Source: Malacoraja senta
Lineage: Eukaryota
Assembly: GCA_038087875.1 (NCBI GenBank)
Contig: CM075991.1
Span: 5,332,112-5,396,000 of the forward strand
Length of the DNA stretch: 63,889 nt
Direction: 5' to 3'
The notes beneath the pieces were generated by a model. The model saw only the letters and a program-made list of their open reading frames with translations. It ran no database searches and was not told the DNA's origin. This document shows positions 6,443 to 55,570 of this stretch, in pieces (within the stretch, counting starts at the first letter, position 1; every line of letters begins with the position of its first letter). The translations under genes and the position numbers were made by a program.

Positions 6443-7142
6443 TAGAGATACAGAGTGGAAACGGACCATTCGGCCCACCGAGTCCGCGCTGACCAGCGAT
6501 CACCCCGTACACTAGCACCATCTTACACACTGGGGACAATATACAATTTTAGCAAAGCCAATTAAACCTACAGACCTATAAGTCTTAGGAGGTAGACACA
6601 AAATGCTGGAGTCTTAGGAGAGTGGCAGGAAACCGGAGCACCCAGAGAAAAACCAAAGGACAAAGGACATTTATTGTCACATACACCAAATGGTGTAGTG
6701 AAATTTGTTCTTGCCACGCAGCACAAATAGACACAACATTAAAGAAATTTAACATAAAACATAAAAACATCCCCCCACAATGGATCCCACTGTGGGGGAA
6801 GGCACAAAGTCCAGTCCATATCCCCTTGTCCACCCATAGTCTGGCCTATATAGGCCTCCACAGTCGCCGCTACGGGGGCCGATGTTACAGGCCCTTCTTC
6901 GCCGGGTGATGGTGCTCCGGCGTCGGGAGAACCCGCTCAGCAGCTTGGGACACCTGGAACGGCCGTATCCCTACCGGAGTCCGCGGCTTCCGAAGCCGCG
7001 GACTCCGGTAGTCATACAAAGAATGTACACTTGTACACTCGTACACTCTTCCACGGCGTCATAGAAAGAATGTACACTCCGTACAGACAGGACTCTGGCG
7101 CTGTAAGGCAGTAACTCTACCGCTGCGTCACTGTGCCACCCC
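6443..7142 (-). mobile_element. HE1-like SINE, interrupted
   Basis: Minus-strand head ggggtggcacagtgacgcagcggtagagttactgccttacagcgccagag; V-domain split by 6654-7010; tail at 6443-6480. Confidence 0.78.
6654..7010 (-). mobile_element. 5'-truncated GC-rich retroposon inserted in a SINE
   Basis: Minus strand ...aaatttcactacaccatttggtgtatgtgacaataaaatgtcctttgtcctttg tail; interrupts the V-domain of the SINE at 6443-7142. Confidence 0.68.
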
Positions 7143-7699
7143 TGAATAAACATGTTGATGAGAAAGGATAAGAGATAAGTGCGGCCAAGAACTTTTAATA
7201 AAGTGGCTACATTTTGTAAACTATGTGGTCGAGTAACTCATACAATCTGTAACAACTATGTCGTCCTCTCTACTATTGGCATTAGAGTCATAGAATCATA
7301 CAGCGTGGATACAGGCCCTTTGGCCCAACTTACCACGCTGACCAACTTGCCCCATCTAGATTGTCCTACCTGCCTGTGTTTGGGACATATCCCCTCAAAC
7401 CTATCCTATGCACATAGCTATCCAAATGTTTCTTAAACATTGTGATAGTATCTGCCTCAACCACCTTTGGCAGCCTATTCCATATACCTACCACCCTTTG
7501 TGTAAAAAAAATTGTCTCTCAGGTTCCCCCCTCACCTTAAACCTATATCCTAATTCTGGATTCCATTGCATTAATTTTCAAATTGTACATTATTTTATCA
7601 AAGCTCTGGTGTTGCCTTCAGAGTCCAAGTAGTTTGTTGATTTTAGTATTTCTAGGATGAAAAAGCAGTGATATAAGCAAGGCTATTGCCCCAAATAAA

Positions 7700-7806
7700 A
7701 ATTAAAAAAAATAATAATAATAATAATAATGTTCGGCACGGACTTGAAGGGCCGAGATGGCCTGTTTCCGTGCTGTAATGGTGATATGGTTATATGGTTA
7801 TATGGT
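7700..7806 (+). mobile_element. Extreme 3' fragment of the same CR1 family as 40954-45036
   Basis: taatgttcggcacggacttgaagggccgagatggcctgtttccgtgctgtaatggt is identical to 44967-45022; (GGTTATAT)n tail. Confidence 0.88.
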
Positions 7807-7974
7807 GAGCAGGAAGGTCAGCGTAACAAAACTACGTGGCAACTGGAAAACAGATATCCACCTTGATAGGTTTTTATGGCGAGTTCTCTTCAGTCCGTAC
7901 CATAGTGGATAATTTATGGTGGAAATCCCAGTGACATGTAACATCCAAATTGGATTTATTCAGTTTACTTGATG

Positions 7975-8185
7975 TTAGTTTATTGTCACATGGACACTAA
8001 AAATCTTTTGTTGCTTGCTGACCAGTCAGCAGAAAGACTATACATGATTACAATCAAGCCATCCACAGTGTACAGATTCAGGATAAAGGAAATAACGGTT
8101 AGTGCAAGATAAAGTCCAGTAGAGTTTGATTAAAGATAGTCCGAGGGTCTCCAGTGAGATGGATGGTAGCTCAGGACTGCTCTCG
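7975..8185 (-). mobile_element. Rex1/Babar-type 3'UTR fragment
   Basis: Homologous to 13168-13320 (cagtcagcagaaagactatacatgattacaatc); another copy at about 23010-23160 on the plus strand. Confidence 0.72.
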
Positions 8186-8186
8186 A

Positions 8187-8260
8187 TGGAGCTTACTCCT
8201 GTGTCAGCGCGATCAAGGGACCAATTGAGGTTACTTGCGCTGACACAGGAGTAAGCTCCA
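8187..8260. repeat. Perfect 24-bp inverted repeat with 26-nt spacer
   Basis: TGGAGCTTACTCCTGTGTCAGCGC (8187-8210) and GCGCTGACACAGGAGTAAGCTCCA (8237-8260). Confidence 0.95.
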
Positions 8261-9007
8261 CCGCCCGCTGTCTTGTTATCCATCGCCCGCTGACCTGCTC
8301 TTGAACTGGTCCCCTCACTGTCTGGTCTACATTAAAAGACACAGACCAGGGCAGTGAATGCCATGCAGTGTCACCCAGCGCAGCAAGTGAAGCCATGTCC
8401 TGCTCCCGGCGGCAGTCGGAATTTAAGGATTTGTACGAAGCTGCTGACATGAGCGAGGCCGGCGAGTGGGAGGTGAGAGATGTTCAGACGGAAGGCACTG
8501 CCAGAGGTGAGCGAGCCGGCAGAAGGCGCTGAGGTGGCGGCCAGTTCCGTTGTCCGGTCCCGGCGGCCGCTCGCAGCCACCCGAGCTACTTCCCTCCCTG
8601 GCCACAACGAGTGAGTTGTTGGCATGATCCCCGACCCCCTCCTTCTCAACGCTCCTGCCCTCCCCGCAACTTTACCCCTGGTCAGACTCACCACAAGCTG
8701 TGAAAGGAACTCTCCCCCCAATTTGTCCCTTGAACTAGTATCGTCATTCAGTAAGATCACAACTGTTTCAACTTGTCCCGGTGTGCTCCCGTTTTCCTAC
8801 CACCTCTCCACCTGCCGGCACCCTCCACCCCCCACCCATTCAGTAATTCAGAATGAAGGAGATTTGGGCAAATTCTTTATTTTTATATTTTATTTTTTTG
8901 AGCGTGAGAAATTCTATGTCCCGCCAGCCTTCTTTCAAAATTTAGCAACTCAAAATGGGGGTGCGTCTTCGACGCAGGTGCGTCTTCATTGCCGGGAAAT
9001 ACGGTAC
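8237..9007. mobile_element. Truncated non-autonomous DNA transposon, Tc1/mariner (Tc2/pogo-like) terminus
   Basis: GC-rich body ending gggtgcgtcttcgacgcaggtgcgtcttcattgccgggaaatacgg-TA, i.e. a TA-CCGTATTTCC terminus on the minus strand; no matching left TIR seen. Confidence 0.5.
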
Positions 9008-11500
9008 TTTATTGAGAGATATGGCTTTTGAAGACTATATAAAAGTCGACTGACAGCTTACGGAGAGGAGAACAATCTGCGCACGCACGGTTTTTTAAAA
9101 GCCGACTGACTGCCTACCCTGAGTAATTACTCACGGCACGTGCCTGATATTTGTATATGAGAGAGAGTCCATGTGTGCATGGGAGTGTGCTTGAGAGTTT
9201 AAGAATAGCAAGGATTTGTTAATTTTTTTTTTTAAAGCACAAGAATTTCAAAGGATGGGCTGACCCATTGCAATTAAACGATGACCAACAAGAAAAGGGT
9301 TCCCTCTCAGCTGGAATAAACTTCCAAACTATATACTGATTATTTTTTCAGGGATTGGTGCAGTTACATTGAAGTTTTGAGTGCAGCATGAATGCGATCT
9401 GTTCAGAAATAGAGTCACCATTCACTGCTGGCATAATAGGTGGAACTTGTACAAGACAAACAAAACGTTGTTTCCTGGGGAGAATTCTTGTTCCTCTAAC
9501 CTAGTGTTGAGAACCAGCCACCGCCCTTTCACATAACAATGCTTTCTAAGAAACCTGGGAGGGTGCAAATTGTGGAAAGAGGATGTACTAACAGCATGAG
9601 GTAACTGCATTAACAACTTGAAAATGATGGAAGTTCCCTACAAAGCATACAAAATAACTGAAATTGTTTAGAATCATATCAGTTTCCAATCTTAGCCTTT
9701 TTTTAAACCAGCATCCAATTTCTTATTTCACATTAAAACACAAGTCACATTCAGATATCTGGACCATCAATCCCATAACACCAGAGAAACCTCATGGAGA
9801 AATGAGATGTCACACCCGATAGATCTAAATGGGCAGGCTGGCATAATATTTTCCAGAGTTTGCGATTCATAGCTACTGTTGTACCTAGGGGTTATCTGGC
9901 ATCTTCCACTCTTAAAGCAGAAGGCCACCTCACCTGCAAACGCTAAAACTGAGTGATTCACATTATTAAATTCATTCTGCAAATTAAGCATTGCGTCACT
10001 TGAATAATGTAGTCAGGCCGTGAATGTGGAAGTTGCTGCAAAACAAAAACCTCAAAAGGTTTAACTTTGTAGTACACATCCCACACAAAGTTAATTCACC
10101 ACATCTTTAGTATATCCAGCAGCCTTCCAAGTTTCATTTCAATATCGTGGTGCCATGTCCCTTCAGTCAGGCACTGAATAAGCTCTCCCTTCATTTAACT
10201 ATCAAATTAAAGATGTGTTCCAGAGCTTCGCAATCAAACCAAAGCTCATAATGTTTGCAGCTACATTTGGAGCAGGTTGAAAAGTGCCTATTTTGACATT
10301 TTATATATATACGATAGGATAACAAATGTATATATATGAGTCTTCCAAAGTTGTAAATTATATGTGAAATAACAGTGAGAAGGAGAGACAGAATGTGTAC
10401 GTGTGGCAGATAAGACCTAATGCAGAGAATTGCAAGAAAGAATAAGGAGAACCATTTTGACCCATTGATCCAACACTGAATGGGACAAAGGAACAGAGAC
10501 TTGGTTGTTTATACACAGACGTCTTTGAAAGTGGAAAGATAATCGGGACATGCATATCCCTAAAAAAAAGTAGAATAAGGGGCTGTATAATTTAAGATAT
10601 TGTATGAAAGAAAGAATTTATGCTAAATCTTTCGAACCTACTTATTAAGCCCTTGATGGAGCATTATGTCTCTTTTGAGACTTTGAAGGACGTCAAAGCT
10701 ATGGAGAGGGTGCAGTGTAGAGAATTTCAGGTCCAAGGAGAGACCAGAGAAACTGTAATTGCTCTGCTTAGAATGAAGATGATGATCAGATCATTCCTAA
10801 AAGTTTTTTACATGATGAGAAGATTTGATGGAATAATTAATAAATAAAGTTACATTGTCAGATGGGTCAGTAATCAGAGAACATTGATCGAAGGAAAATT
10901 GCAAAGAGCAGAAATTATTTTATCGTGGTAATTATGATGGTCTGGAATATGTTGCTTAAAAGGGAAATTGATACACAACTGAAGGGTGAGGAAAGAACAG
11001 GGGAATGGAACCTGTTAGACAGCTCCTTGCAAGAGGCTGCACAACCAAGGTGGACTGAATAGCCTCCTTTGTACTGTAAGATTCTATATGCCAGAGACAT
11101 CACGGACAGCTGGTTGTGTGTAGTCAGAAACTCTAAAAAGAGTGATACCAGCTCATCTGAGGATATACAATTCAAGTGATGATTTCATAAAAACATACGG
11201 CACAGGGAGGAATTCATAACAGCATATTTCTTGGGAAAGGCTAACAATTAGTCTCTTGTCCCATAGTCCTAAAGATTTTTTTGTTTTCAGGCATATATCT
11301 TTGGCTGACAACTAATTTTCACTAACAATATAAACACTAACAATACTTTCAGGCACATCCCACCAAATACGTCTCTCCTGTGGAACTTATGGCAATCTTG
11401 TGGCAGTCTTGCATCTCCCACAGTCCTAAAGGCAACTTCAAGCACCAACATTACTTGAACCAAACAACAGTGCAAACTTCAGCTGATCCCCCACAGCATT

Positions 11501-11693
11501 GACAAAAATGCTGGAGAAACTCAGCGGGTGAAGCAGCATCTACGGAGTGAAGGAAATAGGCGACGTTTCGGGGCGAGACCCTTCTTCAGACCTTCTTATT
11601 TCCTTCGCTCCATAGATGCTGCCTCACCCGCTGAGTTTCTCCAGCATTTTTGTCTACCTTCCATTTTCCAGCATCTGCAGTTCCTTCTTAAAC
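11501..11693. mobile_element. Penelope pLTR-derived fold-back element
   Basis: Inverted arms gacaaaaatgctggagaaactcagcggg.../...cccgctgagtttctccagcatttttgtc with the ccagcatctgcagttccttcttaaac end. No clear TSD. Confidence 0.85.
11558..11593 (-). ncRNA. Minimal hammerhead motif, BIN3-sense orientation
   Basis: Minus strand reads AGGT-CTGAAGA-A-GGGTCTCGCCCC-GAAA-C-GTC-GCCT; a 4-bp helix I (AGGT/GCCT) is possible. Confidence 0.62.
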
Positions 11694-13167: not shown

Positions 13168-13522
13168 AAAGTTTATTTTATTGTCATGTGTAGCGAGGTA
13201 CAATGTAAAGCTTTCTGTTGCGTGCTACACAGTCAGCAGAAAGACTATACATGATTACAATTGAGCTGTCCAATGTACAGATACAGGGTAAATGGTAGCT
13301 CAGGACCGCTCGCTAGTTGTTGATAATATGGTTCAGTTGCCTAATGACAGCTGGGAAAAACTGCCCATGAATCTTGAGGTAAGCGCTTTCACACTTCTGT
13401 ACCTCTTGCCTGATTGTAGAGGGGAGAAAAAGGAATGACTGGGGTGAGACTCGTCCTTGATTTTGCTGGTGGCCTTGGCGAGGCAGCGTAAAGTGTAGAT
13501 GGAGTCAATGGAAGGGAGGTTG
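13168..13522 (-). mobile_element. Rex1/Babar-type LINE 3' end
   Basis: Minus strand translates approximately LPSIDSIYTLRCLAKATSKIKDESHPSHSFFSPLQSGKRYRSVKALTSRFMGSFFPAVIRQL, followed by a 3'UTR ending tgacaataaa. Confidence 0.78.
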
Positions 13523-13613
13523 AAGAATGTTCATTCCAGGAATGAATAAAGAGTCTTTTTACCCAAGTGTCCTGTTTATTTGTCAGCCAACGTCAAAATA
13601 ATGAGATTAGTTG

Positions 13614-14562
13614 AAAAGGACACAAAATGCTGAAGTAATTCAGCATGTCAGGCAACATTTTTGGAGAATCAGAATCAGAATCACACTTTATTCGCCAAGT
13701 ATGTTTTGCAACATATGAGGAATTTCATTTGCCAGGTCAGTCCATACAAATAAAAAGCAACAGATCACTCAAAAACACATTTTAACATGAACATCCACCA
13801 CAGTGAATCCTACACATTCCTCACTGTGATGGAAGGCGAAATAAAGTTCAAGTCCCTTCCCTTAGTCCTTCCTCGGTCGTGGGTCTCGAGCCCCCGTTGA
13901 CGGGACGATCTTGACTCCGGTAGCCGGCGGCGTTCGGGCCCTCCGCGTCGAGGCGATCTGTTCCCGCATCGGAAGGATGTCAGCTCCCCCGCGCCGGGCG
14001 ATCGAACCTCGCGTCGGGGCTGGTCGAACCTTCCGCGACGTTGCAGCTCCCGACTAGCCTCTCCCGACTGCGAGCCTGATGGTAAATCCGCGGTGGGAGC
14101 GATCCCAGGCAAGGGATCAGCTCCGATGTTAAGTCCGCACCCTGCGATAGGGCTCAAAGTCAGTCCGAGGAGGCTTCCAGTCCATCTATGGAAGGCCGCA
14201 GGGTGACCGGAGAATGTGATTCAAAAATTAATCACATCTCCGGCAAGGTAAGAACTTGAAAAAAAGTTTCCCTCAATCCCCTCCCCCCTCCCCCACATAA
14301 AACAAACAGAAGAACATTAAAACAAACTTTTAATACACAAAAAAACCCAAAAAGAATGAAAAAACGAACAGACTGCCGGCAGGGCAGCCTTCGCCCCGGC
14401 CCCTGGTGATATAGATGGATAGATGCCATTTCGGGTCGAGACCCTTCTTCCTGAAACGTCGCCTGTCCATGTTTTCCAGAAATGCTGCCTGACCTGCTGA
14501 GTTACTCCAGCACATTGTGTCCTTTAGTATATTTTCCAGCATTTGCAGTTCTCCGTTCCCAC
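13614..14562. mobile_element. Penelope pLTR fold-back element interrupted by a GC-rich retroposon
   Basis: Left arm 13614-13667; resumes at about 14410 (atggatagatgccatttcgggtcgagacccttcttc...) with the inverted arm running to about 14560. Confidence 0.75.
13665..14406 (-). mobile_element. GC-rich non-coding retroposon with Rex1/Babar-like tail, apparently full length
   Basis: Same module order as 15524-16405 read on the minus strand; AATAAA + (GATTCT)n tail. Confidence 0.7.
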
Positions 14563-15523
14563 AATGAGATTATCTGCCCATAATCACATTGTGATTGTAT
14601 GCACTTTGACTGATATATATATATACCTAAAAGTTTCACATGACAATAATTCACCAATGAAGTCATCCTTTGCTTGTGCTGCGGAATGATCTAATATTGT
14701 GAAGGATGCTAGAAAAATGCCTGTTTTCTCCTTGTTTGACATTTGTTCAAGATCAAAACATCACAGGCTGGATCACTGCCAGATTTAGCCGTTTCTGTTT
14801 GTTCGCCTGTAGATCTTTAAATCCAAGTCTCTTCTGAGGAAGCGTTAAGATCAAACGAGTAGTTTCAGGAGCTCCCAAGGCAGAGTGCTGGTCTTCCATC
14901 CTTGACCATCAAGGGTTTGAATCCTAGCTGACCCTTCATTGGGAAGAGTTTTCCAGCTCTTGGCTGAGCAACTGGAAGGAATACCGCACTACATCACGCC
15001 ACTACACTTCAGAAAAGGCAGCACACCTTACAAGGCTCCGTCCTGCACCACAGATGCTGATCTTGCCTCAGCTGGTTGCAAAATGAGGGTCTTGACAGCC
15101 ACAGTTTAATTTCAGACCATGAATCATCAGCACATCAACAATAAACAAAGTGACTGCCATTTTTCTTCAAAACAGGTGAAAGTTGGGCCAATTAAAGATC
15201 TGAAATATTCTACTCTAATATTATCGGATTGATGTGAGAAAACCTGGTAGGATAAAAATACATTTGTTTTACAAAATATCTGGCAGAGCTTTTTCTTCGA
15301 TGACATGCAACATTTTGGAGTAAATAGAAACCTGTTTGATTTTGAACGTACAATTATTGTGGCTATCCTTCCTGGCAATGTCCCCCCAAAACATTTGTTG
15401 GTTTGTCCATCTAATTATGGAAGATTGAATACTGATCACACACCAAAAATGACCAATAAATTTGTTTTTTTAACCAATTGGCTCAACAGGTCAACATTTT
15501 TCCTGAGACGAAAGATTGTAAAT

Positions 15524-16405
15524 TCGGTGGGCGGCGCGACTTTCGTCTGCAGCGGCCTCTGCAGTCCGTCTGTCTTTTTATTATTTTTGTCTCGTTTTTA
15601 TGTAGTTTTTTATTCTTTTTTTTTGTCGGGGTATGTGTGTGTGGGGGGTGGGGGTGGGGGTGGGGTGGGGAAACTTTGAAATCTTTCCGCTGCACGGGAG
15701 ACCCGACCTTTTCTTTGTCGGGTCTCCGTTGTCGTTGGGGCTGGGCAACGTGGTGCGGCCTCCAGCAGGAACGACCTGGGGCTCCCGTGGAGCTGCGGAC
15801 TACTCATCGTCGCGGGGCTGGCCGAGTCCGGAGCGGGTGGAGCTGTGGTGGAGCGCTGCAGCTACCCGACCGCCGGAGATTCGGAGGCTACAACCGCGGG
15901 TCTGGCGGACGGCAACACTGGAAGCCCGCGGGTCCCCTGGTGGGAGACCGCTTTTCGGGGCTTCCGCAGTGGCGACTTCTCCCGCCCGAGTTGCGGGGTT
16001 GAAGAGCACCTGGAGCGGGGCTTTATCCCCCCGCGCGGCTTGGAATGGCCACTGAACTTTGCGGGTGCGCGCCGGGGCTCTAACACCAAGACCCGGTGCG
16101 CGACCTTGCATCACCCGGCGTGGCTTTAATGGCTGCGGGACAATCACCATCGCCCGCCGGGGGCTTTGACTTTGACTCTGACATCGGGGGGGAGTGCAGT
16201 GGAGAGATACGTTTTTTTGCCTTCCATCACAGCGCTGTGATGGATGTATGTGTAAATTGTGTTGTGTCTCGGGTCTTCTTCGTTTTGTATTGTATGGCTG
16301 CAGAAACGACATTTCGTTTGGACCTCAAGGGGTCCAAATGACAAATTTGTCCAAAAGACAAATAAATTGAATTGAATTGAATTGAATTGAATCCAATTAA
16401 ATTGA
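15524..16405 (+). mobile_element. GC-rich non-coding retroposon with Rex1/Babar-like tail, apparently full length
   Basis: GC head, T-rich tract, G-run, GC-rich body, hairpins, AATAAA and (ATTGA)n tail; no recognisable protein. Confidence 0.7.
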
Positions 16406-16544
16406 ATGGTTGCAAACATTAAACCAGAAAAAGATTGCAGCTTGAATTCTGATTTTAACATATTGATATCACAACATCCGAGAGCCACGGCGACATCTTA
16501 AATCCACAAATTTTGTTAGCACATCATTGTATGTTTAATCATTT

Positions 16545-19092: not shown

Positions 19093-20724
19093 TCCAAAGA
19101 CACATGAACATGCAGAGAAGGGATAGGTACTATTCTATGTTCTATAAAAACAATATGCTGTCAGGGATGTGTGGGCAGCTGGAAAATCTGGGAGGGGGTG
19201 TACATTTAAAAAAAATGCTTGGGTACCTTTGATAGAGACTATAGTTGGAATACCAACATTAAATTACCAACATGGAAATTCAAGAGAGGAGTGAAATAAA
19301 TTTGACATTTTTGCAGCTTTTGTAAAAAGGCGATTGCAATTTTTGGAAAATCCCAACCTTCAGAAACCATGTGAAAATGATTACAAATTGCAGCAAAATC
19401 ACAGAACACACCAGATTGAACCAAAGGGGATGATGCACTTAAAACAGCGGAATTTTTAACTCTGCAAGGCAACACGCCCTCAAGGAACACGATGCCCCAA
19501 GAAATACTGTGAGGAGGAGAAATCAGGGGATCTATGAGGCTTACAGAATATTGAGTTAGTTCGGTTAGAAAGTGTATAGGAAAAGTAAAGGCAAAGTATT
19601 ATCACGAGGGAGACTAACATTCCCAGGAATCAATGGGAAAGCCTCAATCAGTTTAATCTCAAGTACAATTGATAGAGCAAAGGGAAAGATACCGAGTGCA
19701 GACTATAGTTTTATCAGTTCCATATCCTCAATGGGCAAGAGATGAATCAAATAGTATCCCAGCCTATTGAAGGACTGTTCAGACGCCTAATAATGGAGGG
19801 GAAGAAGCTGTTTCTGAATCTGGCGGTGCATGCTTTCAAGCTTCTGTCCTTTCTTCTCCAAATCTTCTCGAAAAAAATGTAATGACTCCACTCCACTGTG
19901 AGTCCCTGGCAGGAGTATGATGTCATTATCCATACACAGGAAGAACGCAGCAGTGGAGGGTAAAAGGTGGAAGGAACACACCATCTCCCAAACTAGCCAG
20001 TCGCCTGCCCTGTCTTGCCTTTTGCCTCTTCCATTGCCAAGGTTGTGAGTTCCACAATAACCACTTCAGAACCCACACACCTTGTTAGAAGCGCGTCATC
20101 CTTGATTTCCAAGGACTGTCGAAGAAGAAAAAAACACCAACAATGATTGCTGGGGTTGATAGCCCTTCACTTGGTTGTAATTATATGTTATGCCCCACAA
20201 CAATGATTTCTTGGGCAATGTTCCAAGGGAAAAGTGGTGCAGATCACACAAAAGAGGATGTTTAAAAGAGGAAGTCAGTGAGTGCACAATTAGCTTGTTA
20301 TGTTTACAATAACTTTAACCAGCATTACTCAGTGTGCTCCTGCTCTGAAGGGGATGATTAAAAAGGATCTGTGATCCTCATAGTCCTGGTCTCCACACAA
20401 ACCACGAGTCCCTTCTGTGTATAGTGGCACATATAGGTGCAACCAAAGCTGGGACATCACAACTGCTCTGAAACCTTGAATAACAACAGCAGCAAGATTC
20501 ACCATTACTGCCCTTATTATATAGGAGGGGCATTGGCACAGTGCTGCCAGACAAGAGTAATAGAGCATCCCACTGTAATGCCTACCTATGTGTTTTTGCC
20601 TCACAGTTGCCTGCGACTTTATACAGCAGGCACTAAAACAGGGTTCAATCAACACTTGAAAAATGATCCCCATCAAATTTATCTCTAAATGAACAGGAAC
20701 AAACCTGTGTGTCTGAAAACCATT

Positions 20725-22563: not shown

Positions 22564-23335
22564 CTACAAAATACAAACAGCATGAGAGTTGTGATGTTTG
22601 TGTCCTGCACGGCTTTGAACTCAGTAATGAGGAATGCGAATGAGAAGTAGCAGGAAAGAAGGTTTGGAACAGCACTGGGCAAAGAAATACATTTGCAAGT
22701 GCCAAGTTCAAATGGTTCAGATTAAAGTTTGCCAGTAATTCACTGATAACACAGTGGAGCGAGATTCACTCTGCTGTGGAACCAACATCAGAGATTTAAG
22801 TAAAAAATTGAGGTGCAAACCAAGTGCTAAACAACAGACATCAAAAAAGCTTAGTCATCTTATAACGAGCAGAAAGGTTCTGCAATCCTTTCACATCCAG
22901 TTGTGATTAATGGTGGAGAACTAAACAACTAAGAAGCCAGGTGACTCTCTGAATGCTGGTCCCAGAAACAGATTTGAAATTGTTCATAACAATCGCTCCA
23001 CTCTTTTAAACCTCTACTCCAACAGCAGTTTATCTTGTATCTGTACACTGTGGATGGCTTGATTGTAATCATTTATAGTCATTCTGCTGAATGGATAGCA
23101 CGCAACAAACAAAAAGCTTTTCACTGTACCTGGATACATGTGACAATAAACTAAACTAAATTTGGAGCAGGCTCCAAGACTATCTTTGTCCTAAATGATG
23201 TTGGGACGCAGAATATGAGCGTTAAAGTCAACGATGATGCATTTGGAGCCAAGTTCATGCAGAAATGCCCTATGAACTATCTATTTTGGCTTCTTCCCAT
23301 GACCCCCACCATTACAGAAGCAATTCTTCAGCCAA

Positions 23336-41106: not shown

Positions 41107-41978
41107 ATGAGGGCCAGGGCAGTTTACTGTTCTGGATGTCAGATGTGGGAGGTCATGGAGTCTGATACCCCTCCAGACGTCCACATCTGTGTCAGGTGCG
41201 TCGAGATGGGGTTCCTAAGGGACCGTGTTAGGAACCTGGAGCAGCAGCTCGATGACCTCTGTCTGATCAGGGAGAGTGAGGTCATAGAAAGGAGTTATAG
41301 GCAAGGGGCAGAGGCAGGGACTAGTGAGTACCCCGGTCCACCTTGAAAATAAGTACTCCTGTTTGAGTACTGATGGGGGGGGACAGCCTTCCTGGGGGTA
41401 GCGACAGCGGCCGGGCCTCCGGCACAGAGACCGGCCCTATTGCTCAGAAGGATAGGGAAAAGAAGAGGAGGGCAATAGTAATAAGGGACTCTATGGTTAG
41501 GGGGTCGGATAGGCGATTCTGTGGACGCAGTCAGGAGACCCGGATGGTAGTTTGCCTCCCTGCTGCCAGGGTCAGCGATGTGTCTGAACGCGTCCAAGAT
41601 ATCCTGAAATCGGAGGGAGAGGAGCCTGAGGTTGTGGTACATATAGATACCAATGACATAGGCAGAAAAAGAGAAGAGGTCCTGAAAGGAGAATTTAGGG
41701 AGTTGGGAGGAGAGTTAAGGAGAAGGTCCGCAAAGGTAACAATCTCAGGATTACTACCTGTGCCACGCGACAGTGAGAGTAGGAATGAAATGAGGTGGAG
41801 GATAAATGCGTGGCTGAGGAACTGGTGCAGCGGGCAGGGATTCAAATTTCTGGATCATTGGGACCTCTTTTGGGGAAGGTGTGACCTGTACAGAAAGGAC
41901 GGGTTGCACTTGAACCCGAGGGGAACCAATATCCTGGCGGGGAGATTTGCAAAGGCTACTGGGGAGACTTTAAACTAG
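41107..41978 (+). pseudogene. CR1 ORF1 (CxxC..CxxC zinc finger, coiled coil, SGNH/GDSL esterase), frameshifted
   Basis: MRARAVYCSGC...HICVRC then LRDRVRNLEQQLDDL; frame break near 41300-41370. Esterase blocks IVIRDSMVRG (GDS changed to RDS), HIDTND (GTND changed to DTND) and DGLH. Confidence 0.85.
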
Positions 41979-44918
41979 AACAGTTGGGGGGAGGGACTCA
42001 AATAGAGAAAGATAGTAGAAAATGTGGGAGGCAGGAGGCAGAGAAGGGAAGCACTCGGACCCAAAATGTAGGGGAGAAAGAAGAAAAAGATAATAAATAG
42101 AGAATAAGTGGTGGTGGATTTCTTAAATGTGTATATTTTAATGCTAGGAGCATTGTAAGAAAGGTGGATGAGCTTAGAGTCTGGATTGACACCTGGAAGT
42201 ATGATGTTGTGGCGATCAGTGAAACATGGTTGCAGGAGGGCTGTGATTGGAAACTAAATATTCCAGGATTTCGTTGCTTCAGGGGTGATAGAATTGGAGG
42301 GGCAAGAGGTGGGGGTGTTGCATTGCTTGTCAATGAAGATATTACAGCACTGCTTTGGCAGGATAGATTAGAGGGCTCGTCTAGGGAGGCTATTTGGGTG
42401 GAGCTGAGAAATGGGAAAGGTGTAGCAACACTTATAGGGGTGTATTATAGACCGCCAAATGGGGAGCGAGAATTGGAAGAGCAAATATGTAAGGAGATAG
42501 CAGATATTAGTAGTAAGCACAAGGTAGTGATTGTGGGAGATTTCAATTTTCCACACATAGACTGGGAAACACATTCTGTAAAAGGGCTGGATGGTGTGGA
42601 GTTTGTAAAATGTGTCCAGGATAGTTTTTTGCAGCAATACATAGAGGTACCTACTAGAGAAGGGGCAGTGCTGGACCTCCTGTTAGGAAATGAGACAGGG
42701 CAGGTGGCGGAGGTAAGTGTTGGGGAGCACTTCGGGTCCAGTGATCACAATACCATTAGTTTCAATATAATTATGGAGAGGGTCAGAACTGGACCTAGGG
42801 TTGAGATTTTTGATTGGAGAAAGGCTAACTTTGAGGAGATGCGAAAGGATTTAAAAGGAGTGAATTGGGACATGATGTTTTATGGGAAGGATGTAGAAGA
42901 GAAATGGAGGACATTTAAGGGTGAAATTTTAAGAGTACAGAATCTTTATGTCCCTGTTCGGTTGAAAGGAAATAGTAAAAATTGGAAAGAGCCATGGTTT
43001 TCAAGGGAAATTGGACACTTGGTTCGGAAAAAGAGAGAGATCTACAATAATTATAGGCAGCATGGAGTAAATGAGGTGCTTGAGGAGTATAAAGAATGTA
43101 AAAAGAATATTAAGAAAGAAATTATAAAAGCTAAAAGAAGATATGAGGTTGCTTTGGCAAGTAAGGTGAAAGTAAATCCAAAGGGTTTCTACAGCTATAT
43201 TAATAGCAAAAGGATAACAAGGAATAAAATTGGTCCATTAGAGAGTCAGAGTGGACAGCTATCTGCAGAGCCAAAAGAGATGGGGGAGATATTGAACAAT
43301 TTCTTTTCTTCGGTATTCACCAAGGAGAAGGATATGGAATTATGTGAGGTAAGGGAAACAAGCAGAGTAGCAATGAAAACTATGAGATTCAAAGAAGAGG
43401 AGGTGCGGACACTTTTGAAAAATATGAAAACGGATAAGTCTCCATGTCCTGACAGGATATTCCCGAGGACATTGAGGGAAGTTAGTGTAGAAATAGCAGG
43501 GGCTATGACAGAAATATTTCAAATGTCATTAGAAACGGGAATAGTGCCGGAGAATTGGCGTACAGCGCATGTTGTTCCGTTGTTTAAAAAGGGTTCTAAG
43601 TGTAAACCTAGCAATTATAGACCTGTTAGTTTGACGTCAGTTGTGGGCAAATTAATGGAAAGGATACTTAGAGATAATATATATAAGCATCTGGATAAGC
43701 AGGGTCTGATTAGGAACAGTCAACATGGATTTGTGTCTGGAAGGTCATGTTTGACTAATCTTCTAGAATTTTTCGAAGAGGTTACTAGGGAAATTGATGA
43801 GGGTAAAGCAGTGGATGTTGTCTATATGGACTTCAGTAAGGCCTTTTACAAGGTTCCTCATGGAAGGTTGGTTAAGAAGATTAAATTGTTGGGTATTAAT
43901 AGTGGAGTAGCAAGATGGATTCAACAGTGGCTAAATGGGAGATGCCAGAGATGGCTGTTTGTCAGGTTGGAGGCCGGTGACTAGTGGGGTGCCTCAGGGG
44001 TCTGTGTTGGGTCCTCTGTTGTTTGTCATGTACATCAATGATCTGGATGATGGTGTGGAAAATTGGATTAGTAAGTATGCAGATGATACTAAGATAGGTG
44101 GTGTGGTGGATAATGAAGTAGATTTTCAAAGTCTACAGAGAGATTTAGGCCATTTGGAAGAGTGGGCTGAAAGATGGCAGATGGAGTTTAATGCTGATAA
44201 ATGTGAGGTACTACATCTCGGCAGGACAAATCAAAATAGGACGTACATGGTAAATGGTAGCGAATTGAGGAATGCAGTTGAACAGAGGGATCTAGGAATA
44301 ACTGTGCATAGTTCCCTGAAGGTGGAATCTCATGTAGATAGGGTGGTAAAGAAAGCTTTTGGTGTGCTGGCCTTTATAAATCAGAGCATTGAATATAGAA
44401 GTTGGGATGTAATGTTAAAATTGTACAAGGCATTGGTGAGGCCAATTCTGGAGTATGGAGTACAATTTTGGTCGCCTAATTATAGGAAGGATGTCAACAA
44501 AATAGAGAGAGTACAGAGGAGATTTACTAGAATGTTGCCTGGGTTTCAGCAACTAAGTTACAGAGAAAGGTTGAACAAGTTAGGTCTTTATTCTTTGGAG
44601 CGCAGAAGGTTAAGAGGGGACTTGATAGAGGTCTTTAAAATTATGAGCGGGATAGACAGAGTTGACATGGATAAGCTTTTTCCATTGAGAGTAGGGAAGA
44701 TTCAAACAAGAGGACATGACTTGAGAATTAAGGGACAGAGGTTTAGGGGTAACATTAGGGGGAACTTATGTACTCAGAGAGTGGTAGCTGTGTGGAATGA
44801 GCTTCCAGTGGAAGTGGTGGAGGCTGGTTCGATTTTATCCTTTAAAAATAGATTGGATGGGTATATGGACGGGAAAGGAATGGAGGGTTATGGTCTGAGT
44901 GCAGGTAGATGGGACTAG
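41979..44918 (+). pseudogene. CR1 ORF2 (APE endonuclease + reverse transcriptase), one frameshift near 43950
   Basis: NARS, ISETWL, YYRPP, VGDFN, SSDH (APE); YRPVSLTS, QHGF, DFSKAFYKV, then in the next frame GVPQGSVLGP, YADD, ERRRLRGDLIE, TRGH. ORF track pieces are 42164-43984 and 43935-44918. Confidence 0.93.
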
Positions 44919-45631
44919 GGGGAAGTATTTTTTTTTTTTTTTTTAATTAAAAAAAAAAAATTTTTTTAATGTTCGGCACGGACTTGAAGGGCCGAGATGG
45001 CCTGTTTCCGTGCTGTAATGGTTATATGGTTATATGGTAACTGGGGAGGGAGTGGTTTGGGTGGGAAGGGACAAGTGAACCAAGGAGTTGCGGAAGGAGC
45101 GGTCACTGCAAAAGGCGGAAAGAGGTGGAGATGAGAAAATGCGACTAGTGGCGGGATCACCTACTTCTGTTCTCCAGACAATCATTGATCCATGTTCTCC
45201 AAAGGTGCTGCCTGACCTGCTGAGTTACTCCAGCACTTTGTGTCCTTTTGTATATTAACCAGCATCTGCAGTTCTTTGTTTCCAGATAGGATCCCAGCCA
45301 AGCTGTTCCAGTTCTATTACAACACTAGTATTGGCCTGAAAATTGCCTCAGTGTGTTCCGTGCATAAAAAGCAGGGGAAATCAATTCAGCTAATTATCAT
45401 CCAATAAAATCTATTCTCAAATATCGGCAACGTAACAGAGGCTATTATCCAAAGGACTGCAAATCAACATTTACTCTGGATTTACTAAACACCAACATCC
45501 AACTTGGGCTTTGCCAAAACCATTCTGCTCCAAACTCATCACAGCTTGGGTCCAAGGTGAGACAAGCTGAGAATGATTGCTTGACGTCAAGTCAACATTT
45601 GACTAAATATGGCAAAGAGGGGCCATAGTAA

Positions 45632-49884: not shown

Positions 49885-50073
49885 GAGACACAGTGCTGGA
49901 GTAGCTCAGCGTGTCAGGCAGCATCTCTGGAAAACTTAGATAGGCGACGTTTTGGGAAAAGGGTCCAGACTGAAAATGTCACCTATCCATGTTCTCCAGA
50001 GATGCTGTCTAGCCCGCTGAGTTACTCTAGCACCGTCTCTTTTTGTATATACCAGCGCCTGCAGTTTTTTGTA
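49885..50073. mobile_element. Penelope pLTR-derived fold-back element
   Basis: Inverted arms; TSD TAAGC(T/C)TCAAAGACA at 49870-49884 and 50074-50088. Confidence 0.83.
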
Positions 50074-51686: not shown

Positions 51687-51787
51687 TTTAAGAAAGAACT
51701 GCAGGTGCTGGAAAAAATCAAAGGTAGACAAAAATGCTGGAGAAACTCAGTGGGTGAGGCAGCAATTATGGAGCGAAGGGAACGACG
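51687..51787 (-). mobile_element. Single-arm Penelope pLTR copy
   Basis: tttaagaaagaactgcaggtgctgg...ggagcgaagg, flanked by TTAAGAGTTG repeats (51677-51686, 51788-51797). Confidence 0.78.
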
Positions 51788-53514
51788 TTAAGAGTTGGAT
51801 TATCATTTTAAGTTCTTGCAGGTGTTATGGGGAAACAAGGAATAAGGGAATAGTGCAAGAAAGTATTTAATGTTCAAGATTAGTCACAAGCCTATGGAAT
51901 GGAAGCAGCACCTGAATGACCTGCTCCTGCTTCTCTTTCTTACGTTCCATGTTCCACAAACTACCGCCATCATTCCCCATCGCCACCGATTTCCAATTAG
52001 TGCAGTAAGATGTTGCACCGGAAACGCTCTCAAACTTACCTTGGTTTCCTCGACTGATTTAGCACAATGCTAGTATATTGGTCAAACAGTGGTCAAAATG
52101 TTGTAGCCTGCACAACTTCCAACAGAATCTCAATAAAACGGAGAAACCACCTGTTTTTATGTTTCACCTGCTCCTTCAGCAAAGTCTCTGAGCCCACCTG
52201 CCTGTCAAAGACAGAACTTGCTTCAAGTTCACTTGCTCTCTACCACTTGTACACAACGTTGTCATACATAGATCAACAAGAATCAATAACCTCAACCCTA
52301 GTCTTTTCCTTGTGCTTTCTAGTTAATTCTGAGTGATTTAGAATGTTGCATTTTTAATAGTTGTGACAAAGGTTACTGGCATCACATAATTCCTTGTGGC
52401 TTGGGAATGGTATGTGACACTTAACTTCTAAGAAGGCCTTCAGAATTAGATGTGAAAGAAAATAGGATGAGGGAATACTGATAACACATTTAGCTGTTTT
52501 ATATCCTGCCACCAAAATACTGTGCCCAGTATGACTATAATTCCTTTGCTTTGGAACAAATGGCCTGAATGGCTTCACTTAACCAACATGCGCACAAGAA
52601 TCAAAGATGAAAACATTATTTCACAGATCCTGAAAACTTAAAAACACCTTGCTTTATAGCCACCAAATATTTATCTACTGAAAAACAAACTGCTTGAGGA
52701 ACTAAGCAGGTCAAACAGCATCTGTGAAGGGAAATGGACAGATGACGTTTTGGATCGAGTCCTTCTTCAGACTGAAGGGTTGTTTGTTGTTCCTCCTCCA
52801 GCAGTTTATTTTTTGCACATCCTCCAGGAGTATGTTTTTGCTCAAGATTTCAGCATCTATAGTCTCTTGTGTCTCCATTTATCTGGTAAACTCACACTGA
52901 AACCTAACAGCAACATGATGTAAACGTTTTAAGATTCTTTCAAAGCTTTCTCTTCAGTCATCTGTTCTTACTCTGGTCTCCTTAACTCATGAAAGGTTGA
53001 ATGTGTTCATATTTCCTTCTGTTGGACTTCTTGGCACTTTGCTGGTATTACTATTTTTGTTACAGCTTGATAATTCATTGCCTTTTTTACCTCAAAGATA
53101 AATATGAACAACTTAAAATATGCCTATCACCTCAGAGGGTGGTGGAGGCCGGTTCTCTGGAATACTTTCAAGAGTGCTAGATAGGGCTCTTAAAGATAGC
53201 GGAGTCAGGGGATATGGGGAGAAGGAACAGGGTACTGATTGTGGATGATCAGCCATGATCACATTGAATGGCGATGCTGGCTCGAAGGGCCGAACGGCCT
53301 ACTCCTGCACCTATTGTCAACTGTCTATTGTATCACCATGAAACGACTCGAATGATAAAGTCAAGGAGTTGTACAATATAGAAACTGGTCCTTCGGCCCA
53401 CTGCATCAAAACTTACCATAATGCACATCTACGCTATTCCCACTTGCTTGCATTAATTCCATATCACTCTATGCTTGCTCTTTCAAGTACTTGCCCAGAT
53501 GCTTCCTAAATGTT

Positions 53515-53701
53515 TAAGAAGGAACTGCAGATGCTGGTTTAAACCGAAGATAGACACAAAAAGCTGGAGTAACTCAGCGGGACAGGCAGCATCTCTGAGA
53601 GAAGGAATGGATGGCGTTTCGGGTCTGAAGAAGGGTCTCGATCCGAAATGTCACCCATTCCTTCTCTCCAGAGAAACTGCCTGTCCTGCTGAGTTACTCC
53701 A
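53515..53701. mobile_element. Penelope pLTR-derived fold-back element inserted in a CR1 3' fragment
   Basis: Inverted arms with central ctgaagaagggtctcgatccgaaatgtc; TSD GCTTCCTAAATGTT at 53501-53514 and 53702-53715. Confidence 0.87.
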
Positions 53702-54995
53702 GCTTCCTAAATGTTGTTACTGTTCCTGCCTCCACCACCTCATTTAGCAGCTCATTTAAAATACCAACCTGCAAAACCGAGTATCAAATTTAATGTATCC
53801 CTCAGTACTCCTTTCATCCTCTACCCTCCAGACACTGACTATCCACCCGATCTATGCCTCTCATAATTTTATACACATATTAATTTGTACATAAGCAATA
53901 AATTAAGCATCATTATACTGAAGAAAAATAATCAAAAGCAAATTAGCGGGTCATTTTTTTCTATTACTAATTGCGGGATCTTGCTGTGCAGAAATTGTCT
54001 GACAGTACCTTCCAAAACGACAGTTTTAAGTAATTAGCATTTTGGGACACACTGATAAAATTAAAAATCGTAAAATACAACTGCACACTTTCTCAAGTCG
54101 CAGCTGGAATATAGAACACACTTAATATTAAACTTTGGAATGTACAGTTGCCAAATTTGTATGTGTGGTTAATGCAGCAGTCTTCACAACTTACCAACAT
54201 CAATCAACATTAGGTTGGGTCAGAGAGTGCGATGAAGCACACAATACCTACATTTATTTTTAAATAATCTAGAATCACCTGTGATAGATGAGGATTCTGT
54301 AGCATTTAACTGTGCAAAAATCCTAAGGCACATAATAAGATGTGACCATACAAAACTGACATCAAACTACAAAAAAGGTATAGAATAACATCTGTGATCC
54401 ACTAAACATATCTGAAAGCTAGTTTCCAAATTTCCTTAAAGACAAGTTGGCAAAGGTGCAAGTTTAAGAATAAGGGGTAAGCCATTTAGAACGGAGACGA
54501 GGATACACTTTTTCTCACAGAGAGTTGTGAGTCTGTGGAATTCTCTGCCTCAGTGGACGGTGGAGGCCGGTTTTCTGGATACTTTCAAGAGAGAGCTAGA
54601 TAGGGCTCTTAAAGATAGGGGATATGGGGAGAACGGGGTACTGATTGGGGATGATCAGTCATGATCACATTGAATGGTGGTGCTGGCTCGAAGGGCCGAA
54701 TGGCCTACTGCTGCACCTATTATCTATTGAAATGTTAATTTTTAAATCATTCAATATTTAGACTGAAGATTTAGAGACTGAAGAGGCTTCAAATTTCACT
54801 GTGTATGAAGGAACGGCAGATGCTGGTTTATACTGAAGATACACAAATTGCTGAAGTAACTCAGCGGGTCAGGCAGCATCTCTGCAGAAAAGGAATAGGT
54901 GACATTTCGTGTCAGAACCCTTCTTCAGACCCTTCAGAAGAAGGATTCAGACCCGAAACATCACCTATTCCTTTTCTCCAGAGTTGCTGCCTGAC

Positions 54996-55570
54996 TGCGG
55001 AGACTGCAGGACCTGGAGCTGGTGCGGCGGGGTCCGGAGCGGAGACTGCGGGACCTGGAGCTGGTACAGCGGGGTCCGGAGCGGAGACTGCGGGACCTGG
55101 AGCTGGTGCGGCAGGGTCCGGAGCGGAGACTGCGGGACCTGGAGCTGATGCAGCGGGGTCCGGAGCGGAGACTGCGGGGCCTGGAGCTGGGGCGGTGGCC
55201 CGGAGCGGAAACTGCGGGACCCGGGGCTGATGCTGTGGTGGGCCGTCTCGGAGCGGAGACGGCGTTCCGGCTTTCGGCGGCGGCGACATCACCACGGAGG
55301 TCCGCTGGACTGGAGGGCGGCATCTTCGGCCTGGATCGATCGCCTCAGCGCAGAGGGAGAACAAGGAGGGAAGAGACGGAGACTAAGACTTTGCCTCCAT
55401 CACAGTGAGGGTGTGCTTGGTGAACTCACTGTGGTGGATGTTTAATTTGTGTTTATTGTATGTTTTGTTATTATTGGTTCTGTGTATGACTGCAGGCATC
55501 ACAATTTCGTTCAGACCGAAAGGTCTGAATGACAATAAAGGAAACTTGATTCTTGATTCTTGATTCTTGA
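54996..55570 (+). mobile_element. 5'-truncated GC-rich retroposon with internal minisatellite
   Basis: Tail aatttcgttcagaccgaaaggtctgaatgacaataaag + (CTTGATT)n; carries the shared TCCATCACAG hairpin. Confidence 0.7.
54997..55260 (+). repeat. 42-bp GC-rich minisatellite, about 6 units
   Basis: Unit gcggagactgcgggacctggagctggtgcggcggggtccgga starts at 54997, 55039, 55081, 55123 and 55165, then degenerates. Confidence 0.95.

Follow-up and report, generated by a model that had tools for sequence, protein, structure and literature searches.

Four ORF-less retroposons of Malacoraja senta and their probable dependence on Rex1/Babar LINEs

Within a window of 63,889 nucleotides from Malacoraja senta (the whole stretch analysed here), four protein-free, GC-rich elements, E1–E4, raise three questions: (i) whether they belong together; (ii) whether they are parts of LINEs, SINEs or something else; and (iii) what mobilises them. 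A sequence-only reading had proposed a family of structured, non-autonomous RNAs, without a recognisable tRNA-like head, that conserve structure rather than sequence. All four elements and their hairpins were confirmed at their positions (Table 1), and their description as non-coding, 3'-anchored retroposons is supported. A structured-RNA family that lacks any head and is held together by structure is not: the Rex1 5'-terminal motif stands at the start of E3, and hairpin A keeps its sequence. We consider it probable (roughly 0.66) that E1–E4 represent several subfamilies of a non-LTR retroposon that has no ORF, is non-autonomous and lives as a parasite of Rex1/Babar LINEs; they are best read as ORF-less Rex1 satellites, in which a Rex1 5' end and Rex1 tails surround a common cassette that is not LINE-like.

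Anatomy, junctions and coding capacity

Table 1. Positions of the elements, their modules and a neighbouring coding fragment in the window
Feature	Positions	Strand	Description	Basis
E1	6654..7011	-	5'-truncated; nested in SINE-like host repeat
E1 hairpin B	6670..6703	-	class TTTCAC..TGTGACAATAAA, like tails of Rex1-type fragments of the window
E1 hairpin A	6771..6800	-	sole copy with both-sided changes
E1 5' fold-back	6971..7011	-	19 bp, perfect, at truncated 5' end	folding z -5.6
Coding Rex1/Babar-type LINE, 3' fragment	13170..13527	-	C-terminus, short 3'UTR without hairpin A, hairpin-B tail
E2	13665..14403	-	apparently full-length, ~740 nt; nested in palindromic host repeat
E2 hairpin B	13687..13724	-	class ATTCCTC..TTGGCGAATAAA, then (GATTCT)n
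E2 hairpin A	13794..13833	-	14 pairs	folding, nhmmer profile
E2 hairpin H	14207..14243	-	outer GGAGA/TCTCC pairs as in E3, inner stem wholly different
E2 head	14265..14403	-	GC-rich start with GGCTGCC, T-rich tract, G run, GGGAAACTTT	aligns with E3 head
E3	15526..16405	+	apparently full-length, ~880 nt	anatomy, tail by TRF, read-run contigs
E3 Rex1 5'-terminal motif	15530..15556	+	GGCGGCGC-N11-GCAGCGGC, without upstream ATG context, then T-rich tract
E3 hairpin H	15697..15727	+	11-bp stem, just 3' of G run and GGGAAACTTT	newly recognised
E3 hairpin A	16223..16244	+		motif, folding, nhmmer profile
E3 hairpin B	16312..16366	+	class TTTCG..TGACAA, short fold-back duplication before AATAAA
E4	54996..55570	+	5'-truncated; in same palindromic host repeat family as E2
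E4 tandem array	54997..55233	+	42-bp GC-rich unit in body, 5.7 copies, 88% matches
E4 hairpin A	55396..55438	+	14 pairs	folding, nhmmer profile
E4 hairpin B	55505..55539	+	same class as E3, and TGACAATAAA, then (CTTGATT)n

Each element holds one hairpin-A motif and the window contains no others; an nhmmer profile of the four 3' ends found no fifth member there: besides the members it gave weak reverse-strand matches on the hairpins of E2 and E1 themselves, and the best other matches had E values of 3.6–6.2. In E3 the modules run in the order Rex1-type head, T-rich tract, G run, hairpin H, GC-rich body, hairpin A, hairpin B and (AATTG)n. Two details of the tails had to be revised: AATAAA does not directly follow hairpin B in E3, where the short fold-back duplication (16346-16366) intervenes, and E2 ends in TTGGCGAATAAA, not TGACAATAAA. 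The microsatellite tails, four according to the sequence-only reading, were called by TRF for E3 and E4, but consist of only two to three units, recognised by eye, in E1 and E2.

At its 3' side E1 lacks a target duplication and at its 5' side carries ~40 nt of re-copied target sequence; the fold-back at its truncated end is presumably an integration scar. The 5' junction of E2 has ~11 extra bases (14404-14414), and TTCT is common to its tail and the target, with no clear duplication. TGAC lies at both sides of E4, as a 4-nt duplication or microhomology, and the 5' start of this copy falls inside its tandem array; E2 has just a 22-bp doublet rather than a clear array.

A profile of the C-terminal part of the Rex1 reverse transcriptase (30 relatives) matched the window at 13357-13521 and 19756-19854 only, with no match in, and no coding trace adjoining, E1–E4; the open frames over E2–E4 are short, GC-rich stop-to-stop frames. 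The elements therefore do not carry the single ORF for AP endonuclease and reverse transcriptase that defines an autonomous Rex1/Babar LINE. Nor was any tRNA or Rfam family found in them, which bears out the earlier statement that no tRNA-like head or protein is recognisable. In a pattern scan with the generally known A- and B-box consensus, an A-box-like match was obtained in two of the four elements and a B box in none, so that small-RNA head, paired internal boxes and T-run-free interior, all expected of a Pol III SINE, are alike without support. The first 200 nt contain seven T runs of at least 4 in E2 and six in E3, and runs of 4–9 in these heads would stop Pol III.

It is accordingly very improbable that E1–E4 are SINEs headed by a degenerate small RNA or by GC-rich sequence from an unknown source, even though they are non-coding, high-copy and GC-rich with a LINE-type tail, and such heads are on record, in the available text, as preceding bipartite RTE sequence in two families of birds (PMC7245038; PMC5786205): tRNA, Rfam match and B box are lacking, the T runs are many, and the head of E3 has a LINE source. 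SINEs with a Rex1 tail (SINE2-5_NV with Rex1-24_NV; PMC3747384, available text) do provide a precedent for non-autonomous use of Rex1 tails, and tail exchange is known among SINEs; however, these SINEs, and the elasmobranch HE1/SacSINE1 that we group with them, are tRNA-headed Pol III units, whereas E2 and E3 lack a head of this kind and include Pol III terminators.

Conserved hairpins, a common head and divergent bodies

The four 3' modules are more stable than shuffled sequences (z -3.3, -3.6, -3.6 and -4.8; 1, 0, 1 and 0 of 200 shuffles equally stable). That structure is conserved and sequence is not holds for hairpins B and H, but not for hairpin A, the arms of which are identical at 22–23 of 23 columns among E2, E3 and E4, those of E1 being identical to the others at 14–15 of 23, partly through a one-base register shift. 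Six of the 14 consensus pairs of hairpin A are invariant, one differs from the commonest pair on both sides, and one further column pair reads UA, UG and CG. The compensatory change previously noted belongs to E1, the sole source of these both-sided changes, and covariation cannot be established from four copies. The formerly quoted hairpin-B stems were confirmed, with both-sided changes in seven of eight consensus pairs; more simply, these divergent stems are tails from different Rex1 lineages with differing 3' stem-loops.

E2 and E3 have a 150-nt head in common (local alignment score 94.5 vs 42.6±6.1, 0/200 shuffles as good), and their 5' junctions lie at similar distances, ~130 and 142 nt, before a common GGGAAACT. 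They also share a third hairpin, H, in which the outer pairs are kept and the inner stem is replaced. The bodies had been judged impossible to align, and BLASTN indeed found no similarity among E1–E4. When all six pairs were scored by local alignment against 200 dinucleotide shuffles, three were no better than shuffles (E2-E3, 74/200 as good; E2-E4, 22/200; E1-E3, 11/200), but the other three beat them all (E3-E4, 118 vs 83±8; E1-E2, 66 vs 41±5; E1-E4, 65.5 vs 47±6).

These comparisons bear on the view that E1–E4 are four unrelated families sharing a short acquired hairpin-A module and generic Rex1 tails, with no single superfamily, the compensatory changes reflecting template-switch homogenisation of inverted repeats rather than selection on RNA structure. 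The three unalignable body pairs, the three differing tail classes, the fold-back events in these copies (E1 5' end, E3 tail) and the origin of the both-sided changes in a single copy would all suit it. Yet head, G run, GGGAAACTTT, hairpin H and hairpin A are collinear in E2 and E3 despite unalignable bodies, the other three body pairs exceed every shuffle, hairpin H keeps its outer pairs around a replaced inner stem, and contig indels of hairpin A are confined to the loop (deletions at 13809 and 13811 in E2); we regard separate origins as improbable.

Rex1-type ends, copy number and the candidate helper

The Rex1 5'-terminal motif of E3 is a single match in the window (0/100 shuffles) and, with a spacer of 8–11, opens 7 of 19 little-skate Rex1 consensuses (counted by eye) in the available part of a published supplement (PMC13343379). 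In the first 400 nt of each of the ~1,000 rows of that consensus table, GCAGCGGCC has eight matches, six of which are Rex1 5' ends, five of these with the exact upstream motif; its L2 and CR1 matches there are without it. The head of E2 weakly resembles a second class of Rex1 5' end, three of the four ATGGCTGCC matches in the same 400 nt being Rex1 5' ends. A head other than a tRNA-like one is recognisable: E3 opens with a LINE-derived terminus and shares its head with E2; the match itself is a 16-base gapped motif in one element, that of E2 being loose and E1 and E4 being 5'-truncated.

At the 3' end, the E1 tail resembles each of three Rex1-type tails of the window (0/300 shuffles as good for each) and the E3 and E4 tails resemble them partially (0–49 of 300), but the E2 tail shows no significant similarity to them (28, 132 and 216 of 300). 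One of the window's coding fragments (13170..13527) has 1109 relatives at E<=0.001, and among ten of these that were scanned, eight contain PF09004 and five RVT_1 as well, a pair that we take to mark Rex1/Babar. This fragment shows the kind of helper that may be involved. A Rex1/Babar helper for E1–E4 is likely from sequence comparison, the better evidence being a Rex1-type coding fragment with an E1-like tail and the Rex1 5'-terminal motif in E3. The proposed mobilisation by such a LINE is in this measure upheld, with the reservation that the E2 tail is unlike those of the window and those of E3 and E4 match in part. As heads were compared with the 5' 400 nt of consensuses and tails with window fragments, no single autonomous element is matched by both; the E3 5'-terminal motif recurs in the seven consensuses, and the hairpin-A and G-run-end motifs had no match in the first 400 nt of the published set. 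In the available texts, the Rex1 coverage of rays ranks among the highest and intact ORFs persist in several Rex1 families of skates (PMC13343379), and in stringent LINEs ORF2 recognises the 3' stem-loop (PMC4176376).

E2 and E3, the two elements compared with contigs of four public sequencing runs (X1, X3, X14, X22), belong to very high-copy families amplified as units without an ORF. Contig depth over them is mostly thousands-fold above the flanks in three of the four runs, reaching 1e5–2e6 against 31–87 in flank bins in X1 and X3, although depth summed over contigs cannot be read as copy number. In X14, the match of two contigs to E2 begins at 14377 and 14398, at most 30 nt from the E2 5' end, with 777 and 117 unlike bases upstream. 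Observed/expected CpG, counted as a sign of youth, is 0.80–0.97 in the elements (0.97 in E3) and 0.42 in the whole window. In X1, a contig that differs at a single position over 1018 bases extends 234 bases beyond 15514 without fitting E3, as would an empty site; its fit ends 11 bases before E3, and the right flank lies in a skipped repeat. Joints at 13835>13977 (X3) and 15985>16109 (X22) indicate a labile GC-rich body, and one at 13782>14230 (X1, depth 211) drops body and hairpin A entirely.

An alternative that we hold to be unlikely, though less so than those above, makes body and hairpin A the long 3'UTR of one or several autonomous Rex1 families. E1 and E4 would then be LINE copies with the ordinary loss of the 5' end, and E2 and E3 either plain bipartite derivatives that arose by internal deletion or truncated copies of such LINEs. 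An X3 contig (contig 27, 840 nt, depth 1665, ~36x flank) fits the E2 body only (13897-14066) and has 649 further bases upstream, so that a longer or autonomous relative exists in that organism; E1 and E4 have no head, and 5' truncation, together with a conserved 3'UTR that ends in variable tandem tails, is a known trait of Rex1 (PMC6274825, available text). Against this, E3 opens at a Rex1 5' terminus and so is no mere 3' fragment, the window's coding fragments have short UTRs without hairpin A, and no coding trace lies beside any of the four. According to the available part of PMC13343379, the non-ORF sequence of little-skate Rex1-7 comes to ~1,000 nt and the family has GC-rich tandem repeats, but the repeats sit near its 5' end, and among the eight skate Rex1 families that keep one or more intact ORFs the sequence outside the ORF is 14–250 nt in six, ~545 in one and ~1,000 in one, in consensuses that may be trimmed.

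As satellites, E1–E4 share with Rex1/Babar LINEs the 5'-terminal motif followed by a T-rich tract (E3), frequent 5' truncation and abundance in rays (PMC6274825; PMC13343379), and a 3'UTR followed by variable oligonucleotide repeats (PMC6274825), as far as the available texts describe them; however, they have neither endonuclease nor reverse transcriptase, are a quarter of the length, and carry hairpins H and A, which were not seen in the Rex1 sequence compared. Bipartite non-autonomous LINEs (RIME/Ingi, NARTc/L1Tc, Bov-A, RTE-N2_Lch, Vingi/R2 derivatives) are likewise ORF-less, combine LINE 5' and 3' ends and are moved in trans by the cognate LINE (PMC5786205, available text). Such a 5' end was found in E3 and loosely in E2, and a LINE 3' end in E1 and partly in E3 and E4, but not in E2. 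Unlike bipartite LINEs as described there, E1–E4 have 600–700 nt of hairpin-bearing sequence with no identified source between the ends, and one cassette is combined with several tail classes.

SVA elements of hominoids depend on L1 and end in poly(A). SVA/LAVA are also composite, GC-rich and non-coding with a tandem array, here clear in one copy of four (E4), but this is an analogy only, as the tails of E1–E4 are Rex1-type stem-loops with microsatellites, and 0–4 nt duplications or microhomology take the place of poly(A) and long L1-type duplications.

A possible mode of amplification and its implications

From these features we infer how the elements may be transcribed, mobilised in trans and passed between partners, and what hairpins A and H may do. 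A full element of 0.75–0.9 kb would have three parts: (i) a Rex1-derived 5' terminus, the putative source of an internal Pol II promoter; (ii) a middle cassette, its source not found, of G run, GGGAAACTTT, hairpin H, a GC-rich body that appears labile and expandable by tandem repetition, a purine-rich stretch and hairpin A; and (iii) a Rex1-type tail of T-rich tract, hairpin B, AATAAA and microsatellite. Acting in trans, the Rex1 ORF protein would bind hairpin B and, at the microsatellite, prime reverse transcription on nicked DNA; the resulting copies would be 3'-anchored and often 5'-truncated, with microhomology or 0–4 nt duplications. Hairpin A would most likely be a cis element under selection, as a second protein contact or for RNA stability. 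Since three tail classes and two head variants surround one hairpin A, the cassette has probably changed its Rex1 partner, perhaps by template switching or recombination.

More speculatively, one ancient non-coding RNA cassette might parasitise the entire Rex1 radiation of rays by switching hosts, with tens of thousands of copies and insertion still going on. It is equally tentative that promoter and reverse-transcriptase handle would both come from whichever Rex1 lineage is active.

The combination of Rex1 ends with a hairpin-bearing GC-rich middle was not found described in the literature searched, so that the suggestion of a possibly undescribed family stands for that literature only, Dfam and Repbase being outside the comparison. 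As sources of ORF-less derivatives, only RTE, Ingi, Vingi and R2 are named in the available text of Kojima 2018 (PMC5786205), and Rex1 is not among them. If our reading is true, Rex1 would be one more LINE clade on this short list, and its derivatives would arise by addition of a conserved core rather than by simple deletion. No new replication mechanism is indicated, and swapped tails on one cassette would be a natural test series for RNA recognition by the Rex1 protein. Under the host-switching reading, the family would be a Pol II counterpart of the conserved-core SINE superfamilies, defined by a structured core and not by a small-RNA head. Of the repeats still unclassified in the genomes of batoids, such elements might explain a sizeable share, and their recent insertions could act as presence/absence markers.

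Hairpins, heads and bodies of the four elements

The four GC-rich non-coding elements E1–E4 (see table) are real, and their sequences, hairpins and tails are present in the window as claimed in the sequence-only reading. The motif of hairpin A, located toward the 3' end, occurs four times in the whole window, once in each element, and searching the window with a profile built from all four 3' ends revealed no fifth member. All four 3' modules exceed their dinucleotide shuffles in stability (z -3.3 to -4.8), and RNAalifold recovered from the four copies both hairpin A and hairpin B, the latter lying in the tail before AATAAA and the microsatellite.

The earlier proposal that structure is conserved rather than sequence holds for hairpin B and fails for hairpin A, because in E2–E4 22–23 of 23 arm columns of hairpin A agree, whereas the stems of hairpin B have 2–8 of 12 in common. 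Both-sided changes affect seven of the eight pairs of hairpin B; in hairpin A, 6 of 14 pairs are invariant and such changes come from E1 alone. Since five other tails gave z values of 0.0, -3.5, 1.0, -0.6 and -0.5 when folded, hairpin B by itself carries no strong energy signal. The hairpin-A pattern had no matches in viral contigs, and its seven loci in metagenome contigs were attributed to chance, none (0/7) being followed by a T-rich tract and tail.

Overlooked in the sequence-only reading were a head of about 150 nt common to E2 and E3 (GC-rich start, T-rich tract, G run and GGGAAACTTT) and a third hairpin, H, which follows it in both elements. In H the inner stems of the two are unrelated and the outer pairs (GGAGA/TCTCC) are the same. 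The alignment score of the two heads, 94.5 versus 42.6±6.1, was reached by none of 200 shuffles. The heads show no folding advantage over shuffles (z -0.6 and +0.6), and that of the hairpin-H regions is modest (z -2.0 and -2.1). The claim that no tRNA-like head is recognisable stands insofar as E1–E4 contain neither a tRNA or Rfam match nor a B box, but it passes over the head shared by E2 and E3, which in E3 carries a Rex1 motif. A hammerhead or HDV-like ribozyme, and a likeness of the E2 hairpin-H region to the U1 snRNA 5' end, were considered by eye and rejected: at E<=10, Rfam returned six matches, each far under the gathering threshold, and none corresponded to these. The bodies, described earlier as unalignable, indeed gave no BLASTN match among E1–E4, and three of the six pairs score within the shuffles, but the other three beat all 200.

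In our main reading, E1–E4 are ORF-less Rex1/Babar satellites, in which a cassette of other sequence (G run, hairpin H, GC-rich body and hairpin A) lies between a Rex1 head and a Rex1-type tail. Within this cassette, hairpins A and H probably serve as cis elements, although fold-back homogenisation, like selection on RNA structure, could give rise to matched changes, and a set of four copies is too small to tell them apart.

Features of the window discussed in the text
Feature	Position	Strand	Remarks
E1	6654-7011	-	Host: SINE-like repeat
E2	13665-14403	-	Host: palindromic repeat
E3	15526-16405	+	
E4	54996-55570	+	Host: palindromic repeat
Rex1-type coding fragment	13336-13527		1109 relatives (exhaustive protein search); short 3'UTR without hairpin A
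Repeats of its short 3'UTR	23029-23157; 7975-8200		Without hairpin A
Second Rex1-type C-terminal coding fragment	19690-19860	-	iE 8e-9; different 3'UTR, hairpin-B tail not recognisable
Fifth non-coding element, purine/GC-rich	28365-28660	+	Without hairpin A; tail much like Rex1-type (0/300 shuffles)
Sixth GC-rich element	~5215-5720	-	TTTCAC-type stem-loop at end, no hairpin A; body aligns with E2 body, above all 200 shuffles
GC-rich stretch	~8260-9010	-	Short palindrome inside near 8200-8260; by eye, resembles a DNA-transposon derivative
CR1-type LINE, near-complete	41367-45040	+	Esterase ORF1; endonuclease-RT ORF2 frameshifted
CR1-type LINE copy, partial RT	30438-31684	-	
Palindromic repeat, 100-230 nt	13614-14569; 53507-53705; 54800-55597		About 25 further sites in the window

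Rex1-type heads and tails

The first 30 bases of E3 hold GGCGGCGC-N11-GCAGCGGC, a motif missed in the earlier reading, with one occurrence in the window and none in 100 shuffles. As a reference we used the first 400 nt of each of ~1,000 CR1-group consensuses from an excerpt of the PMC13343379 supplement. In this excerpt, inspection by eye placed the motif (spacer 8–11) at the start of seven little-skate Rex1 consensuses out of 19, a set in which six appear 5'-truncated, and of 2 of 13 stingray rows among those listed, a third having it partly; none of five sawfish rows contained it. Over the whole excerpted table GCAGCGGCC has eight matches, six of which are Rex1 5' ends and two of which are without the upstream half. 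The E2 head has a looser likeness to a second Rex1 class: three of four matches of ATGGCTGCC in the excerpt are Rex1 5' ends, and E2's own GGCTGCCCT has three matches there, all in L2 rows. Behind the head motif, the T-rich tract may be coding in some skate Rex1 families, because their ORFs must begin at the extreme 5' end, as in Rex1-12 of the same excerpt (3230 nt, 1072-aa ORF). E3 has lost the start context.

Ten relatives of the coding fragment nearest E2 were scanned; eight contain PF09004 and five of them RVT_1 as well, and those bearing organism names are from fishes. We take the pair PF09004 and RVT_1 to be a Rex1/Babar marker. For this 64-aa fragment a word-indexed protein search gave no relatives and Pfam no match to the fragment itself, and no link between DUF1891 and Rex1 appeared in the literature among the matches listed. 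The suggested likeness of the tails to Rex1/Babar proved uneven: compared with three copies of the Rex1-type 3'UTR, the E1 tail matches each (0/300 shuffles) and those of E3 and E4 match partially (0–49/300), but that of E2 does not match (28–216/300). The fifth non-coding element probably represents a further Rex1-dependent family.

The main rival to the satellite reading is that the cassette is the long 3'UTR of an autonomous Rex1. Two of the eight intact-ORF skate Rex1 families in the excerpted supplement would offer room for it, with ~545 and ~1,000 nt outside the ORF, whereas the other six have 14–250 nt and are short of room, unless these consensuses are trimmed. No full Rex1 element DNA was found in viral contigs or plasmids; among prokaryote genomes, a Rex1-type coding fragment (939–1226 of L008, a 1.2-kb contig filed under a bacterial metagenome-assembled genome) is likely host contamination, and the contig stops 70 nt past the coding match, short of any tail.

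Insertion junctions, abundance and variants

The window is eukaryotic DNA rich in repeats. CR1-type LINEs have left remains in it that include endonuclease, reverse transcriptase and an esterase ORF1, and it also contains a palindromic repeat of very high abundance and another that is SINE-like. To judge from this set of repeats and from the Rex1 matches, the host is probably a skate or ray. E4 is flanked by TGAC at both ends; in E2, TTCT is common to tail and target and the 5' junction has ~11 additional bases; at the 5' junction of E1 the target sequence is copied again, with a 19-bp fold-back. These junctions fit LINE-type integration, since similar short duplications and two types of 5' joining are described for a zebrafish LINE in the excerpt of PMC4245944.

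Contigs from 4 of 24 listed public sequencing runs (X1, X3, X14 and X22, the last probably a DNA run) were aligned to 13640–16430, which covers E2 and E3 only. No RNA run is among those listed for this stretch, a result without bearing on expression. Contig depth, which gives no copy number, cannot rank parts and supports high-copy status only, was 31–43 (X1), 39–87 (X3) and 24–42 (X14) in flank bins, 1e5–1.4e6 (X1, X3) and 8e4–7e5 (X14) in E2 bins, and 2.4e5–2.1e6 (X1, X3) but only 3e2–4e4 (X14) in E3 bins. Relative to the flanks, E2 depth is raised by a factor of thousands to tens of thousands; the same holds for E3 in X1 and X3, whereas in X14 the factor for E3 is 11–1,400. Depth also declines towards the 5' end of E2, an observation given no weight here since depth does not rank parts. 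More than one organism carries E2 and E3 as high-copy families. CpG o/e values of 0.80–0.97, versus 0.42 for the window, indicate little decay.

Two of the X14 contigs have 777 and 117 unlike bases upstream of the points where their fit begins, 14377 and 14398 respectively, which would be expected of independent full-length E2-type copies. An empty E3 site in X1 is suggested, indirectly, by a contig with one difference over 1018 bases, which extends 234 bases past 15514 without fit to E3. Joints with shortened or replaced bodies occur at 13835>13977 (X3) and 15985>16109 (X22). Counting against the satellite reading are an X1 joint, 13782>14230, which deletes the body and hairpin A, and an 840-nt X3 contig at ~36x flank depth, which fits the E2 body at 13897–14066 and then continues upstream for 649 bases without fit.

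The palindromic repeat itself reaches contig depths as high as 1.3e7. Its copy around E2 seems absent from the X3 organism, since an X3 contig continues 248 bases beyond 14565 without fit to it, and present in X1, X14 and X22. At 14783, ~90–95 bases of both X3 and X14 contigs are missing from the window.

Comparison with known elements and a possible cycle

E1–E4 work like bipartite non-autonomous LINEs, a likeness rather than established membership, the middle having been matched to no source. They differ from SINEs, lacking the tRNA or Rfam head and the B box, and fail the ORF test for autonomous Rex1. According to Kojima 2018 (PMC5786205), ORF-less derivatives had been reported for RTE, Ingi, Vingi and R2 only, and the batoid repeat papers, in the parts covered, give totals per class only. 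The literature searched, to which Dfam, Repbase, subscription journals and bioRxiv supplements did not belong, holds no description of such elements; repeats of this type are very likely contained in automated libraries under some label.

We consider the following cycle most likely. Transcription would be by Pol II from the Rex1-derived head, Pol III being disfavoured because of the T runs in the heads. A Rex1 protein would bind hairpin B in trans, by analogy with zebrafish L2 elements (excerpt of PMC4176376), target-primed reverse transcription would start at the microsatellite, and frequent truncation would yield copies like E1 and E4. SINEs are known to exchange tails (PMC5786205, in excerpt). 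In E1–E4, one hairpin A is combined with tails of three classes and with two variants of the head, which suggests partner switching among Rex1 lineages.
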